From a virus: DNA of 64,000 nucleotides. The stretch lies in IMG/VR virus record IMGVR_UViG_3300018495_000106; one strand, given 5' to 3'. Below are positions 48,319-60,677 of this stretch, in pieces (within the stretch, counting starts at the first letter, position 1; each line of letters starts with the position of its first letter). The notes below the pieces were generated by a model. The model worked only from the letters and a program-made list of their open reading frames with translations. It was not told where the DNA came from and ran no database searches. The translations under genes and the position numbers were made by a program.

Positions 48319-50805
48319 ATGGGAAGATATGATGAAGAGAATTATGGCGGTTCTCCTATGAGTCGCCAGCAGAGAGACCTTGTTCTTTCTGTTAATGAGT
48401 TCTGCTTCCTGCAGAACAAGACCAACGGTTCTATTAAGTCCCATGTTGGTCCGCTGACTATGACTATTAGCCAGCAGGAAGCTCTGGTAACTTTCAATAC
48501 CAGAACTAAGAAGTTTGAGGAAACCCAGGACTTCGAGAAGGCAAGACAGCTTTTTGTCAGCGCTCCCGAAGGTTGGTATGTAATCCTCAAGAACCCTTGC
48601 ACTGACGGACAGTATCCTGAGTCCGGCAAGGCAAATGCAATTCCGCAGTCTATGAAGATTGGTACCAAGGTAAACATTCCTGGTCCTGTATCTTTCGCTT
48701 TGTATCCGGGCCAGATGGCAAAGGTTGTTCGTGGTCACAGACTTCGTTCCAACCAGTATCTGCTTGCTCGTGTATACGACGCACAGGCTGCTATGAAGAA
48801 TATCGCAAGTGCTACCATCGTTGATGCTGAGGGTAAGGAAGTTGCCCAGAAGCAGGAGGAGTACTTCATGGGTCAGCTGCTCGTTATCAAGGGTACTGAA
48901 GTTTCCTTCTATGTACCTCCTACTGGTATCGAAGTAATTGCTGTCAACAACGATGACAAGATGGGCTTTGTGCGCGAGGCTGTTACTCTGGAACGCCTGG
49001 AGTATGCAATCCTTAAGGACGAAGATGGTGAGAAGAGATATGTCCATGGTCCTGCCGTGGTATTCCCTAAGCCTACTGAGACTTTCGTTGAGAGTCCTAA
49101 GGGCGGCTCTATCTTCCGCGCATTGGAGCTTTCTCCTGTCAGCGGTATCTACATCAAGGTAATTGCTGCATATAAGGATGAAGATGGCACTGAGCATCCT
49201 ACTGGTGAAGAACTGTTCATCACTGGTAAGGAACAGATGATTTATTATCCTCGTCCTGAACACGCGATGATTCAGTACGACGGTAAGTATATGCACCACG
49301 CTATCGCAATTCCTGAGGGCGAAGGTCGTTATATCCTCAACAGACTTACTGGTGAGATTAAGACCATCAAGGGACCTCAGATGTACCTGCCTGACCCTCG
49401 TAAGGAAGTTGTGGTTAAGCGTAAGCTGACTGCTAAGGAATGTGCTCTGCTCTACCCTGGCAACATGGAAGTTCTGGAGTACAACGGCAATCTGTCTGAG
49501 AAGGTAACTGAGAAGATGGCTCGTAAGGGCATGACCAATGCACTCACTGATGCTATCAACTGTGCTTACAGCACCTCTAACCAGCTCGACACTCTGGCAA
49601 TTTTCGAGGCAAATGCCAATATCAGTCGTGGTGTTTCCTACACCAAACCTCGCACTATTACTCTCGACACCAAGTATGAGGGTGTAGTTGCAGTCGATGT
49701 ATGGACTGGTTACGCTATCAATGTCGTTTCCAAGTCTGGTAAGAGAGAAGTTGTGGTTGGTCCTACCACCCGCCTGCTCGATTACGATGAAACCGTGGAA
49801 GCAATGAGCCTGTCTACTGGTCGTCCTAAGACCACTGACAATCTGCTCACTACTGCGTTCCTTCGCATTGAGAACAACAAGGTTGCCGACCTCATCAATG
49901 TTCAGACCTCTGACTTTGTTGATGTTCAGGTTAAGCTGTCCTACTGTGTAAACTTCCTTGAAGAGCACAAGGATAAGTGGTTTTCTGTTGAAAACTATGT
50001 CAAGTATATGACTGACCATATGAGAAGCCTGCTTAAGAGAGAAGTGAAGAACCACACTATCCAGGATTTCTATGCAAACAGCACTGACATTGTTCGTGCT
50101 TGCGTGCTGGGTGTTTCTGAGGATGGTAAGACTAAGGGTCGCTTCTTCGCAGAGAATGGTATGATGGTTTATGATGTTGAAGTCCTCAGCATCAAGATGG
50201 CCGCTTCCGTTGCTAATATGTTCGAGGACCATCAGTTCGAGATGATTAGCAAGACTCTGGAACTCTCTGACGCTGAAGCTAAGATGAAGGTCGTTGAAGC
50301 TCTGGCTGCTGTTGAAAAGCAGGAAGCTGAGTTGAAGAACGCCAACGCTCTGTACAGACTGGCTCTTGACCAGAAGGTACAGGAAGAGAAGTTGGCTCGT
50401 GACGAGGCCCTCAAGGCTAAGCAGAGAGCGGCTGCCGCTGCTGAAGTTCAGGCTAAGAAGGACTTGCAGGAAGTCCTGACTGCAATCCAGACCGCTGAAT
50501 TGGCTCGTAAGAAGGCTATCACTGACGCTGAGACCGCTCACGCTAAGGAAATGGCTGAAATCGAGGCTGAAAAGCAGAAGGCATATGCTAAGACTGTTAA
50601 GGAAATCATGGAATCCATTACTCCTGACCTGGTTGCTGCTCTGTCTACCAAGGCAAACGCAGAGGCTCTGGAAGCTGTAACCGGCAACATGGCACCTTAC
50701 GCTCTGGCTAACGGTGAATCTGTGGCTGAGACTGTTGACAAGCTCCTGAGAGGCACTACCCTCGAAGGTGTCTTGACCGACATTGCTAAGGCTAAGAACG
50801 CCTAA
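48319..50805 (+). CDS. major vault protein (MVP)-like protein with C-terminal coiled coil
   Basis: FALYPGQ (MVP-repeat F.LYPGE), LSLSTGRPKTT (MVP LSLSAGRPKRP) and N-terminal F.h.N.TNGS...GP.T pattern; Ala/Glu/Lys-rich C-terminal helix. Confidence 0.55.
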   Translation: MGRYDEENYGGSPMSRQQRDLVLSVNEFCFLQNKTNGSIKSHVGPLTMTISQQEALVTFNTRTKKFEETQDFEKARQLFVSAPEGWYVILKNPCTDGQYPESGKANAIPQSMKIGTKVNIPGPVSFALYPGQMAKVVRGHRLRSNQYLLARVYDAQAAMKNIASATIVDAEGKEVAQKQEEYFMGQLLVIKGTEVSFYVPPTGIEVIAVNNDDKMGFVREAVTLERLEYAILKDEDGEKRYVHGPAVVFPKPTETFVESPKGGSIFRALELSPVSGIYIKVIAAYKDEDGTEHPTGEELFITGKEQMIYYPRPEHAMIQYDGKYMHHAIAIPEGEGRYILNRLTGEIKTIKGPQMYLPDPRKEVVVKRKLTAKECALLYPGNMEVLEYNGNLSEKVTEKMARKGMTNALTDAINCAYSTSNQLDTLAIFEANANISRGVSYTKPRTITLDTKYEGVVAVDVWTGYAINVVSKSGKREVVVGPTTRLLDYDETVEAMSLSTGRPKTTDNLLTTAFLRIENNKVADLINVQTSDFVDVQVKLSYCVNFLEEHKDKWFSVENYVKYMTDHMRSLLKREVKNHTIQDFYANSTDIVRACVLGVSEDGKTKGRFFAENGMMVYDVEVLSIKMAASVANMFEDHQFEMISKTLELSDAEAKMKVVEALAAVEKQEAELKNANALYRLALDQKVQEEKLARDEALKAKQRAAAAAEVQAKKDLQEVLTAIQTAELARKKAITDAETAHAKEMAEIEAEKQKAYAKTVKEIMESITPDLVAALSTKANAEALEAVTGNMAPYALANGESVAETVDKLLRGTTLEGVLTDIAKAKNA

Positions 50806-50816
50806 GAGATAGATAG

Positions 50817-50850
50817 AGGGCGAGGGTAAAACCTCGCCCTTGATTTTTTA
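50817..50850 (+). terminator. rho-independent terminator
   Basis: AGGGCGAGG/CCTCGCCCT. Confidence 0.7.
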
Positions 50851-50868
50851 TAAAATATATGTTATAAT
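50840..50868 (+). promoter_or_regulatory. consensus promoter
   Basis: upstream of PncA. Confidence 0.8.
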
Positions 50869-58830: not shown

Positions 58831-59096
58831 GCCACGCAATCCGACATTTGGACTATCACTGTTCAACAAGTGAGCGAGCAATTCTGAAAGACCTCAACAG
58901 TTTTGCTTATGACCCTCAGGAGAGTTGTGGTTACCACGGTAACTTAACTTTCCATAAGGAGCCGGTTTACAAAAACCGAGAGGAAGCCGAAAAGGCGATT
59001 GAAAAATTCGATAAAGGTTGGTATGATGACCACGCGGTCAGATACCGCCAAGGTCGAAGAATCTTTTGGTTAGTTAAGTGCGAATGGCACTGCTAA
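58827..59096 (+). CDS. hypothetical protein
   Basis: coupled. Confidence 0.45.
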   Translation: MSHAIRHLDYHCSTSERAILKDLNSFAYDPQESCGYHGNLTFHKEPVYKNREEAEKAIEKFDKGWYDDHAVRYRQGRRIFWLVKCEWHC

Positions 59097-59144
59097 TATA
59101 TGTACTTTGAAAACAAAATATGATAAGAAAAAGGAGAACTAAGA

Positions 59145-60677
59145 ATGGATGTATTGATTCCTATTATTTCCACTGTGGGCATCGCCCTCATCGCAATCGT
59201 TCTGGTAATTGTTCTGATTAAGAGCTGCTGGAAGGTTGCTGGCACTAACGAAGTCCTTATCATCTCTGGTATGGGTAAGGTTAAGCGCAAGACTGGCGGC
59301 GGTATCTTCGTAATTCCTCTGCTTCAGCGTGTTCAGCGCATGACACTGGAAAACATTCAGGTAGACTTCACTTCTCGTAATGAGATTCCTACTCAGGATG
59401 CTATCCATGTGCTCGTTGATGCAGTTGCGAACATGAGCATTTCTCTTGACCCTGCTCGTCAGAGCATCGCGGCAAGCAAGTTTGCTGGCTACACTGTGGC
59501 TCAGATTCGAGACATTGTAATTCCTGTTCTCGAAGGTAACATTCGTGAAATCATTTCCCAGACTCGTTTCGAAGATTTGATTCGCGGCGACAAGAAGGCA
59601 TTCGCTGAGAAGATTCAGGAGAACGTTACTCCTAACCTTGCAGACCTTGGTATCGACCTCACCACTTTCAACATTCAGAACTTCTCTGATAGAAATGGTG
59701 TGATTCAGGACCTCGGTGTTGACAACATCGAAAAGATTCGTAAGGAAGCTTCCATCGCAGCTGCTAAGGCTAAGGCTGAGGTTGCTGTAGCACAGGCTCA
59801 GGCCGACAAGGACGCCAACGATGCTAAGGTTGCAGCTGCAACTGAGATTGCTCAGAAGCAGACTGAATTCGCAATCCGTAAGGCAGAACTTCAGAAGCAG
59901 GCTGACACTGAGCAGGCTAAGGCTGATGCTGCTAAGCAGATTGAGGCTGAGAACCAGCGTAGAGAGCAGGAAATTGCAACCGCTAACGCTAACCTTGCTC
60001 GTCAGGAGAAGGAAATCGAGCTCCAGGAACGTGCCGTAGCCATCAAGGAAAAGGCACTGGAAGCTGAAATCAAGAAGTCTGCTGAAGCTAAGAAGTACGC
60101 TGAACAGCAGGCTGCGGACGCCGCTCTGTACAAGACTCAGAAGGCCGCTGAGGCTGACCTCTTCGAGCGTCAGAGACTGGCAGAAGCTGCTAAGATTGAG
60201 GCAGAGAAGAAGGCTGAAGCTGACCTGGCTCTCGCTCAGGCAGAAGCTGCAGCTAAGAAGGCTCTTGCAGATGCAGTTCGTGCACAGGGTGAAGCAGAAG
60301 CTGCTGCGGCACAGGCAAAGGGTCTCGCTGAGGCTGAAGCCATCAAGGCTAAGCTCCAGGCTGAGGCAGACGGTCTTCGTGAGAAGGCTGAGGCTATGAA
60401 GCAGTACGGTGACGCTGCTATGGCAGACATGCAGATGCAGGCCATCAAGACTTACTTCGAGCAGCTGCCTGAAATCGCTCGTGCGGTTGGTGAAGGCTAC
60501 CAGGGCGTTGACAAGATTGTCATGCTGGGTAATGACTCCGGTCAGCTCGCTGGCAACATCATGAGCACTACTACTCAGATTTCTGAGGGTATGGCTGAGT
60601 CCTTGGGTATCGACCTTAAGACTCTGCTCACTGGTATGCTCGGCGCTAAGATTGTTACCAATGGTGAGAACAACTAA
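59145..60677 (+). CDS. SPFH/band-7 flotillin-like protein
   Basis: N-terminal TM, SPFH core, long EA-rich coiled coil. Confidence 0.75.
   Translation: MDVLIPIISTVGIALIAIVLVIVLIKSCWKVAGTNEVLIISGMGKVKRKTGGGIFVIPLLQRVQRMTLENIQVDFTSRNEIPTQDAIHVLVDAVANMSISLDPARQSIAASKFAGYTVAQIRDIVIPVLEGNIREIISQTRFEDLIRGDKKAFAEKIQENVTPNLADLGIDLTTFNIQNFSDRNGVIQDLGVDNIEKIRKEASIAAAKAKAEVAVAQAQADKDANDAKVAAATEIAQKQTEFAIRKAELQKQADTEQAKADAAKQIEAENQRREQEIATANANLARQEKEIELQERAVAIKEKALEAEIKKSAEAKKYAEQQAADAALYKTQKAAEADLFERQRLAEAAKIEAEKKAEADLALAQAEAAAKKALADAVRAQGEAEAAAAQAKGLAEAEAIKAKLQAEADGLREKAEAMKQYGDAAMADMQMQAIKTYFEQLPEIARAVGEGYQGVDKIVMLGNDSGQLAGNIMSTTTQISEGMAESLGIDLKTLLTGMLGAKIVTNGENN

Follow-up and report, generated by a model that had tools for sequence, protein, structure and literature searches.

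A full-length major vault protein homologue in an apparently jumbo-type phage, and the RNA-repair and NAD+ genes found near it

Introduction

This report concerns a 64,000-nucleotide stretch of viral DNA from the IMG/VR record IMGVR_UViG_3300018495_000106 (one strand; "the window" means this stretch at its full length), and in particular its open reading frame (ORF) 48319-50805. We regard it as near certain that this ORF encodes a genuine full-length major vault protein (MVP) homologue, of the bacterial/phage branch. The eukaryotic vault is a closed cage of two 39-mer MVP halves (78-mer); PARP4 and the TEP1 NADase are found inside the particle, and the function of vaults in eukaryotes has been unclear since 1986; recent work connects them with NAD+ and ADP-ribose. 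A preliminary description of the window, made from the sequence alone, had called the product MVP-like and proposed that it acts together with a flotillin encoded downstream.

Results

The gene and its transcription unit

The ORF list gives the MVP frame as 48313..50805 on the plus strand, with 830 aa (amino acids) counted from a GTG. The likely start is the ATG at 48319, 9 nt past AAAGGAG, and the product then has 828 aa. The preliminary description was right about the ORF and placed it at 48319, while the length of 830 aa that it gave fits the GTG at 48313. The gene forms a transcription unit of its own, which consists of a promoter-like site at 47948, a 94-aa ORF, the MVP gene and a strong terminator-like hairpin at 50816 (Table 1); this hairpin and the promoter-like site of the following unit, at 50840, overlap. 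Neither Pfam nor PHROG matches the 94-aa ORF, and tblastn over 47 related loci found nothing like it; it was rejected as a co-transcribed partner of MVP, being not conserved even in an 80%-identical relative.

The promoter-like element TTGA[CT]T-N14-TGnTATAAT has 28 copies on the plus strand and 0 on the minus strand of the whole window (examples are at 45245, 47948, 50840, 53002, 56610, 57401 and 60810). The inspected copies have a conserved AT-rich spacer (ttttataaaaaatatgt) followed by atatata, and in three of them the T-tail of the terminator ahead of it extends into the -35 box.

A 765-aa ORF lies antisense to MVP. It had been taken as an artefact, and this is confirmed, because it shares the codon register of MVP and because the MVP gene contains 0 TTA, CTA and TCA codons (stops on the opposite strand) against 19 expected from the window-wide usage. 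The NAMPT-like gene, the flotillin gene and ORF 718-2319 likewise face long mirror ORFs of this origin. More generally, the window contains two codon-usage classes. The biased one (718-2319, 32228-33787, 48319-50805, 51658-52431, 53806-55278 and 59145-60677) is nearly free of TTA, CTA and TCA, has a third-position GC content (GC3) of 0.51-0.61 and therefore gives rise to long mirror ORFs on the minus strand; the unbiased one (the genes at 4-16 kb and PhoH) uses these codons freely at GC3 0.25-0.38.

The protein

Two Pfam models match the protein above their cut-offs: MVP_shoulder (PF11978; 93.8 bits against 25, E 9.7e-27, aa 519-627, model positions 2-116 of 118) and Vault_3 (32.1 bits against 28.8, E 1.2e-7, aa 473-510). 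A Vault repeat (PF01505) at aa 272-312 stays below its cut-off, with 13.5 bits against 27. The phmmer search against all PDB sequences returned MVP chains only (rat, human and other vaults; best E 8.6e-16, residues 321-776), and in PHROG and NCBIfam there is no family or name matching MVP. The Pfam scores and the PDB search exclude a coincidence of low-complexity sequence, which the preliminary description had considered.

The AlphaFold2 monomer, built on 63 homologues, has a mean predicted local distance difference test score (pLDDT) of 63 and a predicted template modelling score (pTM) of 0.29. The shoulder and the cap helix reach 80-90. The Ala/Glu/Lys segment 629-764 is modelled as a single long helix at pLDDT ~80-85, which aligns with the rat cap helix in phmmer and agrees with the cap-like C-terminal helix noticed earlier. 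Foldseek against PDB, a check that had been proposed with the original claim, gives full-length human, rat and rabbit MVP as the top 12 matches (4e-23 to 2e-18, 800-930 aligned columns), then mouse MVP R1-R7 at 1e-8, and then cages of SPFH proteins (prohibitin, erlin, HflK/C, flotillin, stomatin). The competing idea of a capsid or scaffold protein of the HK97 fold was rejected for the 828-aa product, since no capsid fold is in this list and MVP chains head it; the MVP-like assignment therefore stands. As to the short motifs on which it had leaned, MSLSTGRPK does align to rat LSLSAGRPK, while the repeats carry FALYPGQ and ALLYPGN, that is, PGQ/PGN and not PGE.

Rat MVP has nine N-terminal beta-repeat domains. 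In the phage protein the N-terminal beta-repeat region (~aa 1-518) is followed by the SPFH shoulder (519-627), the cap helix (629-764) and C-terminal helices (769-827). Judging by the sequence matches and the model, the parts follow one another as they do in eukaryotic MVP, with the beta-repeats first, then the SPFH shoulder, the long helix (~135 residues) and a short C-terminal region. Beta-repeats appear to be present in the 518-aa repeat region, as suggested by Vault_3 above its cut-off and by the Foldseek matches to R1-R7 and to full-length MVPs, in a number that is not countable at a model confidence of 30-78.

The likeness to eukaryotic MVP (rat, human, rabbit; PDB 4V60, 7PKZ, 9BW5) extends over the whole length, 828 against 861-893 aa, and includes the GRPK motif of the keyhole loop and R437. 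The differences are an identity of only ~16-19% in the structural alignment; the lack of a TEP1 or PARP4 orthologue and of a vault RNA among what was found for the phage MVP; the replacement of most residues of the human NAD+ pocket; and the setting of the gene, a phage genome in which genes for RNA repair and NAD salvage flank it. Chromosomal MVPs of Nannocystis (complete genomes), Cytophagales, Riflebacteria and Sericytochromatia, bacterial MVPs being covered in a 2019 preprint (bioRxiv 10.1101/872010), are closer: they are 42-48% identical over the full length and have the same invariant shoulder residues. The phage MVP belongs to this bacterial branch. The bacterial chromosomal genes differ in having no conserved neighbours, whereas the phage copies lie in a region of RNA-repair and counter-defence genes.

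The basic site of the shoulder

In human vaults NAD+, ADP and ADP-ribose (ADPR) are bound in a basic pocket between adjacent shoulder domains, made of 13 residues (R437, R504, K506, R507, P508, H509, R511, L517, D521, F522, W545, P565 and K573), with affinities of only tens of micromolar (PMC12280208). ADP-ribose is also present in native brain vaults (bioRxiv 10.64898/2026.05.01.722283). Conservation of the pocket was assessed from the phmmer alignment together with a second one, of 115 MVPs from phages and bacteria.

STGRPK, directly N-terminal of the shoulder domain, takes the place of the keyhole loop in alignments to the NAD+/ADP-ribose pocket of human MVP, and the phmmer alignment to rat MVP puts R502 and K504 of the window protein on R504 and K506. 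Of the 13 residues, R437, R504 and K506 are kept, D521 is replaced by N, and L517 and F522 by R and K. R437 is found in all sequences (115/115); P503-K504 (human P505-K506) is nearly invariant (~103/115), and N520 (human D521) occurs in 113/115. R516 and K521, which correspond to human L517 and F522, are mostly basic in the 115 sequences; R502 (human R504) is R or K in phages and T in bacteria. Because the aligned basic residues are kept across the 115 MVPs, we consider it likely that the phage MVP shoulder has a conserved basic site, putatively a ligand site.

Relatives and earlier reports

The window is apparently a part of a large, jumbo-type phage of gut-type Firmicutes. It has 37 tRNA genes in 15 kb, its family-matched long ORFs are all on the plus strand, and many of its proteins have strong PHROG matches. 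Megablast of 20 kb of the window against deposited phages gave no match. The 90%-identity cluster of the window MVP has 161 members on contigs of up to 220 kb; four shorter members are labelled "major vault protein" by JGI.

Relatives of the MVP were found in 47 IMG/VR viral loci, many of them on contigs of 120-340 kb, and in three deposited records of uncultured huge phages, two of them seemingly identical (462 and 735 kb, 39% identity). Further contigs with MVP are 116-531 kb long, and some have phage genes (prohead protease, DNA polymerase B). An exhaustive profile search gave 623 MVP-family clusters (50% identity) at E<=1e-30, many of them on phage contigs of 130-735 kb. All MVP-carrying phages found so far are uncultured. 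Another 25 close relatives are filed in metagenome-assembled genomes (MAGs) of Clostridium, Mollicutes, Saccharibacteria, Methanobrevibacter and Erysipelotrichaceae, several on contigs of 105-176 kb; since the taxa are scattered and the contigs of this size, these records fit mis-binned phage contigs.

The preliminary description regarded a phage-encoded MVP as unexpected. This view could not be retained, considering the dozens of IMG/VR contigs, the deposited huge-phage records, the JGI names and a 2023 preprint (bioRxiv 10.1101/2023.11.10.566534). In that preprint, two gut-phage MVPs (Caudoviricetes sp. ctOa11 and ct2Ri15) are presented with AlphaFold models; its tree puts phage MVPs among bacterial ones; amino-acid storage or an auxiliary metabolic role is proposed and a virion component is also raised; and a confusion of phage with bacterium is traced for Clostridium sp. 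SUG910. The SUG910 contig is one of our loci (L054), and its MVP is 56% identical to that of the window. The ctOa11 and ct2Ri15 MVPs resemble ours in being full-length, from uncultured gut phages, outside the structural module and nearest to bacterial MVPs. The preprint covers two cases and, as far as we could see, contains no analysis of the gene neighbourhood, whereas many phage contigs of 130-735 kb are considered here, together with their RNA-repair, NARP1, PARP and macro context. Borg elements have also been reported with MVP-like genes. Given the 2023 and 2019 preprints, the JGI names and the Borg reports, the window MVP is not new as a kind. Phage MVP as such is already reported, and the gene neighbourhood is the new information. 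Our literature search turned up no experiments with an MVP from a prokaryote or a phage.

Genes around MVP in the window

The preliminary description had left the gap between MVP and flotillin unread. It contains a candidate NAD+ reconstitution cassette and RNA-repair genes; genes for RNA ligase, NADAR, a Sir2 deacylase and Thg1 are among those that precede MVP (Table 1).

Table 1. Features of the window discussed in the text, in order of position
Feature	Position	Strand	Evidence or remark
DUF2828+DUF7788 protein, Ro60/TROVE fold predicted	32228-33787	+	phrog_850 'RNA-binding protein' 3e-125; Foldseek
SLOG-family protein	35703-36077	+	
RlaP-like nucleotidyltransferase	36352-37275	+	weak match
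Sigma-70 factor	38480-39505	+	
RNase T	40157-41065	+	
RNA ligase	41065..42498	+	phrog_968 1.5e-63; Pfam PHA02142 OB and RNA_ligase matches weak
NADAR	44288-44698	+	1e-25
Sir2 deacylase	45310-46080	+	NCBIfam NAD-dependent protein deacylase 276.7 against cut-off 221
YqeY	46040-46531	+	
Thg1-like tRNA-His guanylyltransferase	46542..47471	+	Pfam Thg1 7e-29; phrog_4717 3.4e-88
Promoter-like site, 5' of the MVP transcription unit	47948..47976	+	TTGATT-17-TATAAT with TG
94-aa ORF between promoter-like site and MVP	48012..48296	+	
765-aa antisense ORF, artefact and not a gene	48244..50541	-	codon register shared with MVP
MVP homologue	48319..50805	+	828 aa; Pfam, PDB phmmer, AlphaFold2, Foldseek, 44% full-length identity to chromosomal bacterial MVPs
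Shoulder (SPFH) domain of MVP	49873..50199	+	Pfam MVP_shoulder, aa 519-627
Intrinsic-terminator-like hairpin	50816..50841	+	10 bp (7 GC) and T run; 11 nt past the MVP stop
Isochorismatase-family protein, possibly nicotinamidase	50903..51475	+	Pfam Isochorismatase 4.9e-24; NCBIfam nicotinamidase 37.7 against 174
Prs-family protein, candidate Adps of NARP1	51658..52431	+	Pfam PF14572 6.5e-8; phrog_619 2.6e-64
NAMPT-family protein, candidate Namat of NARP1	53806..55278	+	PF04095 1.4e-27; PF18127 2.9e-9; phrog_448 1.3e-151
Macro-like protein, candidate ADPR-1''-phosphate phosphatase (Adpp) of NARP1-AP	55278..55781	+	phrog_335 'phosphatase' 4.5e-36
NAD+ synthase (NadE)	55783..56574	+	Pfam NAD_synthase 9e-51; NCBIfam TIGR00552 166.7 against 63.65
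Metallophosphoesterase, NinI-like	56688..57398	+	Pfam Metallophos 1.3e-11; phrog_246 8.3e-41
Polynucleotide-kinase-like (Pnk-like) P-loop kinase	57744..58250	+	Pfam AAA_33 2.1e-18; phrog_505 'polynucleotide kinase' 5.7e-25
Phosphoesterase accompanying the kinase	58189..58830	+	Pfam Metallophos_2 5.1e-10; phrog_547 1.4e-49
Flotillin-family SPFH protein, N-terminal membrane anchor	59145..60677	+	510 aa; Band_7, Flot, human flotillin-1
PIN-PhoH	61619-62857	+	

The NARP1 signature is a Prs-family gene (PF14572) together with a Nampt-family gene (PF18127+PF04095); Adps turns ADPR into ADPR-PP, and Namat joins ADPR-PP and nicotinamide (bioRxiv 10.1101/2024.02.11.579819). NARP1-AP is NARP1 with a macro-domain phosphatase added and serves NAD+ reconstitution (bioRxiv 10.64898/2026.01.28.702374). 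The Prs-like, NAMPT-like and macro-like genes of the window carry this published domain signature, and we consider the trio a candidate NARP1-AP-like NAD+ reconstitution cassette with predicted enzyme specificities. The NAMPT-family protein scores 427.6 with NCBIfam NF006629 (cut-off 405), and the macro-like protein matches, by BLASTP at 5e-13, the macro-domain protein that adjoins MVP in the deposited phage LR756500. There are two indirect hints at NARP1 specificity: the Prs-family protein is below every NCBIfam ribose-phosphate diphosphokinase cut-off, and the window has no NMNAT gene. The differences from NARP1 are that the window genes are split over two transcription units with two ORFs between them, which is not a tight two-gene operon, and that an isochorismatase-family protein and NadE, neither of which the published pathway needs, are encoded alongside. 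A deamidated route through nicotinate and NadE is conceivable from the predicted functions. The NARP1-AP-like set with the isochorismatase-family gene and NadE recurs in three related loci (L001, L032, L062) and in part in a fourth (L053). At 8249-8803 of L001, the IMG/VR locus closest to the window, upstream of Thg1 and MVP, an ORF absent from the window has the motif GQPFHNGH and looks NMNAT/cytidylyltransferase-like by eye, without a family search.

The sirtuin is above the NCBI deacylase cut-off and so is of the CobB type, not a defence-type SIR2 NADase. No PARP was found in the window, and its Rfam scan, relevant to vault RNA and Y RNA, gives only tRNAs.

The DUF2828 protein was considered as a counterpart of TEP1. 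Its model (pLDDT 68.5) has TROVE/Ro60 proteins as all of the top seven Foldseek matches (7e-6 to 2e-3, TM 0.40-0.51), and its predicted architecture is a ring of helical repeats with a vWA domain. The fold match is real; nevertheless, the role of a TEP1 counterpart was rejected, since sequence searches of PDB were empty and since MVP is absent from all 703 cultured-phage records in which relatives of the protein occur (phages of Escherichia, Mycobacterium, Salmonella, Vibrio, Listeria, Staphylococcus, Bacillus and others). In view of these records the protein cannot be counted as a vault partner.

The neighbourhood in relatives

Neighbours were counted within 10 kb of MVP in 72 phage-type loci, namely the 47 IMG/VR loci and the 25 MAG contigs. 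The Pnk-like kinase (42/72) and its accompanying phosphoesterase (42-43/72) are the most frequent. RNA ligase of a first type is found in 32/72 and of a second type in 11-12/72, the RlaP-like nucleotidyltransferase in 23-24/72, Thg1 in 21/72, the isochorismatase-family protein in 13-14/72, the TROVE-fold protein in 12/72 and the NAD cassette in 5-7/72; 21-26 related loci have the NinI-like metallophosphoesterase near MVP. Most commonly, MVP is followed by a single variable gene, then RNA ligase, in some loci a Zn-ribbon gene, and finally Pnk and phosphoesterase; Thg1 is often directly upstream of MVP. A small conserved gene directly 3' of MVP was looked for and rejected: the slot differs among the relatives and includes homing-endonuclease-like ORFs.

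Prs, NAMPT and NadE are near MVP in 2/47 IMG/VR loci and 3-4/25 MAG contigs, and for this reason the NAD cassette was rejected as a conserved MVP partner. In the window and the two IMG/VR loci most closely related to it, the cassette is found downstream of MVP; in the window and L001 it splits MVP from the kinase pair. It has the look of an insertion, specific to a lineage, that came between MVP and the Pnk/phosphoesterase genes.

A useful independent case for the RNA-repair and NAD context is LR756500.1 (L048; 462 kb, deposited, unannotated; region 7517-20061), whose MVP is 39% identical to that of the window. Upstream of MVP there are genes for a PARP catalytic-domain protein (1.6e-21), an R2K ATP-grasp protein, an AAA ATPase, an RNA ligase (6e-28), an HD+AAA_33 Pnk-like protein and a CoaB-like protein; downstream are a macro-domain protein and then a sigma factor. 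The ligase and HD-Pnk are 2-4 kb upstream, PARP is 6 kb upstream and the macro-domain gene 1 kb downstream. By tblastn, the RNA ligase and PARP are each single-copy in the 462 kb.

Six other huge-phage loci were checked. L130 has NadE 1 kb upstream of MVP and a prohead protease ~8 kb downstream; L132 has Thg1 8.5 kb from MVP and a VWA gene; L133 has VWA, L134 CYTH and a weak NUDIX match, and L135 an RNA ligase at 5 kb; L131 has nothing relevant. In L132, L133 and L134, an environmental huge-phage clade of 209-531 kb, a glucosaminidase-domain gene is always directly 3' of MVP on the opposite strand, and a small VWA protein is encoded 5-8 kb upstream of MVP in 2/3 of them.

Other features of the window

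A low-GC island at ~4-16 kb (0.34-0.36 against 0.41-0.48 elsewhere) contains a YcaO cyclodehydratase (8708-10513, 1.7e-30), two weak radical-SAM-like ORFs (11538-14358) and an M28/M20 peptidase-like ORF (5570-6625); a citrate/sulfate-type transporter (2878-4302) lies just before it. By gene content the region 2878-15739 looks like a cluster for a ribosomally synthesised and post-translationally modified peptide in a phage genome.

The array of 37 tRNAs (15833-31170) covers all 20 amino acids, with small ORFs between the tRNAs, including one for an AAA/STAND-like ATPase (22579-23691). At 26348-26464 there is a tRNA-like element seen by Rfam only and not by ARAGORN; its acceptor, D and T arms are intact and its end is CCACCA, while a 55-nt insert takes the place of the anticodon arm and the fold is no stabler than that of shuffled sequence. 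Just upstream, at 26230-26279, 50 nt match positions 1096-1145 of 23S rRNA weakly (18.7 bits). ORF 718-2319 was rejected as a capsid hallmark: it has nothing in Pfam, only a family of unknown function in PHROG and nothing by tblastn.

Discussion

MVP sits outside any recognisable virion module, in an accessory region with 37 tRNAs, RNA-repair genes and the NARP1-AP-like cassette. The reading that we prefer is as follows. The phage MVP would be made in large amounts, to which its own expression signals and its biased codon usage point. By way of the shoulder and cap helix it would, as MVP does, assemble itself into a hollow cage of vault-like or half-vault form within the cytoplasm of the infected cell. 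The cage would serve the same purpose as the neighbouring genes, that is, to keep translation and nucleotide pools running under host attack on tRNAs and NAD+; most likely, a phosphate-bearing ligand or RNA would be bound or enclosed at the conserved basic site of the inner shoulder. Taken as a whole, this reading of an abundant vault-like cage that sustains infection under host attack seems to us evenly poised between right and wrong. As to its parts, it is more probable than not that the phage MVP forms a cage, and a counter-defence role is possible, although the more doubtful of the two. The tie between MVP and the genes for RNA repair and NAD+/ADP-ribose is suggestive only, because it is seen in two distant lineages and is not universal.

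A number of observations weigh against the preferred reading. The monomer model is of moderate quality only, with pLDDT <50 at residues 221-277 and 404-455, the stretch of R437 included. The window protein has other residues in place of R507, P508, H509, R511, W545, P565 and K573 of the human pocket, and in two relatives the keyhole loop is wholly missing. The literature searched contains no vault-like particle from any bacterium or phage. By the promoter-like sites and terminators of the window, MVP is transcribed apart from the NAD and RNA-repair genes, and the codon bias may stem from the origin of the genes instead of their expression level. The counts from the 72 loci are statistically weak, since these loci share ancestry and synteny and are not independent. 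In the 735-kb phage LR756501 only NADAR is near MVP, in L046 and L047 no such gene is, and the six other huge-phage loci have mostly hypothetical neighbours, with NadE, Thg1, RNA ligase, NUDIX and VWA scattered among them. The chromosomal bacterial MVPs have no conserved neighbours: the 144 flanking proteins include Radical_SAM 7 times, CorA 4 times and others <=2 times, and a conserved operon partner in bacteria was accordingly rejected.

More specific forms of the cage can be considered. In one, the many inter-subunit shoulder pockets are a sponge or reservoir for NAD+, ADP-ribose or immune signals derived from ADP-ribose, and the cage shields NAD+ from NADases of the host, soaks up the signals or feeds the adjacent NARP1 enzymes. 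The ligands of the human shoulder pocket (PMC12280208; bioRxiv 10.64898/2026.05.01.722283) make this attractive, as do the equivalents of human R437 and K506, invariant or nearly so in the 115 MVPs, and the two extra basic residues at L517 and F522. The neighbours point in the same direction: Adps-, Namat- and Adpp-like genes, NadE, SIR2 and NADAR in the window, PARP and macro in LR756500, NadE in L130 and NADAR in LR756501. However, the NAD cassette accompanies MVP in few lineages (see the counts above), and the bacterial MVPs hold the same residues without NAD genes nearby. Five human pocket residues, by the count made for this alternative, are replaced, and the loop is gone in two relatives; R437 is aligned in a low-confidence region of the model, and even the human affinities are only tens of micromolar (PMC12280208). 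We think a nucleotide sponge unlikely.

We give the same low standing to a cage centred on RNA, which would, in the manner of the eukaryotic vault ribonucleoprotein, hold RNA such as phage or damaged tRNAs, or would concentrate the tRNA repair enzymes encoded nearby. The most conserved neighbours in the clade of the window are indeed RNA ligase, the Pnk-like kinase, phosphoesterases and Thg1; in LR756500 an RNA ligase, single-copy in 462 kb, and HD-Pnk are near MVP, and RNA ligase and Thg1 recur at 5 and 8.5 kb in L135 and L132. The array of 37 tRNAs is 17 kb upstream of MVP, and the TROVE-fold protein is Ro60/TEP1-like. Nevertheless, Rfam finds no RNA family besides tRNA, no RNA-binding motif was identified in MVP, several huge-phage MVP loci have no RNA-repair genes nearby, and the TROVE-fold protein occurs in the 703 cultured-phage records that lack MVP.

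The proposal of the preliminary description was that MVP and flotillin build a shell or a membrane microdomain compartment during infection. Spelled out here, the two would co-assemble or dock through their SPFH domains into a membrane-attached structure. The flotillin itself, said there to lie 8 kb downstream, is well supported. Its ORF begins 8.3 kb past the MVP stop, its N-terminus is hydrophobic (aa 4-26), Band_7 scores 74.3 bits against 23.6 (1.6e-20) and Flot 28.6 against 27 (1.7e-6), and human flotillin-1 matches at 2e-41. It is like flotillin-1/2 and bacterial FloT in having a membrane anchor, Band_7, an Ala/Glu-rich coiled coil and a Flot domain; it differs in being phage-encoded and in that the annotation of the window has no recognised NfeD-type partner beside it. 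With the NCBIfam FloT model it scores 221 where the cut-off is 700, and it is thus no FloT equivalog.

The pairing is another matter. In its favour, both proteins have SPFH-type domains and long coiled-coil helices, both genes have an equally extreme codon bias, and flotillin is within 10 kb of MVP in 12-14/72 loci, in eight of them 1-2 genes upstream (L002, L004, L016, L026, L030, L034, L037, L045). However, it is found anywhere from -5.7 to +9.3 kb, the majority of the relatives lack a flotillin within 10 kb, and there is none near MVP in LR756500, LR756501 or the six other huge-phage loci. In the window the flotillin gene has its own promoter-like site at 58999, and several terminators separate the two transcription units. 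MVP has no membrane anchor, and the solved SPFH cages consist of one protein or of close paralogue pairs (HflK/C, flotillin-1/2, prohibitin-1/2, erlin-1/2), whereas MVP and flotillin are only distantly related. We therefore consider a joint structure improbable. The flotillin is an SPFH scaffold in its own right, membrane-anchored and with a promoter of its own, and not a fixed MVP partner; nothing links the two beyond a common variable accessory region.

A role of MVP in the virion or its assembly, where it could be the inner body, the scaffold or a decoration of some very large capsid, is a little less probable still. MVP belongs to a self-assembling, shell-type family, its codons are those of abundant proteins, only phages with large genomes have it, and the 2023 preprint raises this possibility (bioRxiv 10.1101/2023.11.10.566534). 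Against this, neither the 64-kb window nor the 10 kb around MVP in the relatives examined has a recognised gene for capsid, portal, terminase or tail, save the prohead protease of L130; the neighbours are metabolic and RNA-repair genes, no PHROG family matches MVP, and free-living bacteria have 44%-identical chromosomal orthologues.

Finally, it is very improbable that the window is a bacterial chromosome or another mobile element with a simply bacterial MVP: this would agree with the lack of a recognised virion gene, the 25 close relatives filed in bacterial or archaeal MAGs and the transporter, YcaO and sigma-70 genes, but the scattered MAG taxa and contig sizes fit mis-binning, 47 relatives are on IMG/VR viral contigs, the window has 37 tRNAs in 15 kb, one-strand genes, neighbours with strong PHROG matches and 28 copies of the promoter motif, and the same confusion was traced for Clostridium sp. 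SUG910 in bioRxiv 10.1101/2023.11.10.566534.

Conclusions

If the phage MVP is a stray acquisition unlinked to its neighbours, the window is still a well-documented further example of what has been reported. MVP is widespread in large phages, and at least two distant lineages have NAD+/ADP-ribose and RNA-repair genes next to it, which suggests an anti-defence setting for a simpler MVP. A new type of self-assembling cage would join the known structures that phages build in the cell.

The phage context echoes the NAD+ and RNA associations of eukaryotic vaults, which is interesting but unproven. The furthest-reaching version, namely that phage and bacterial MVP cages bind a nucleotide of the NAD+/ADP-ribose type at the shoulder and act as counter-defence against NAD+-depleting and tRNA-cleaving immunity, we hold to be unlikely. 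If it were true, the link of the vault shell with NAD+-handling enzymes and small RNAs would be ancient and born in the conflict of viruses with their hosts, the NAD+ partners being PARP4 and the TEP1 NADase in animals and NARP1, SIR2, NADAR, PARP and macro proteins in phages. It would also offer a tractable prokaryotic model for the 40-year-old question of vault function.

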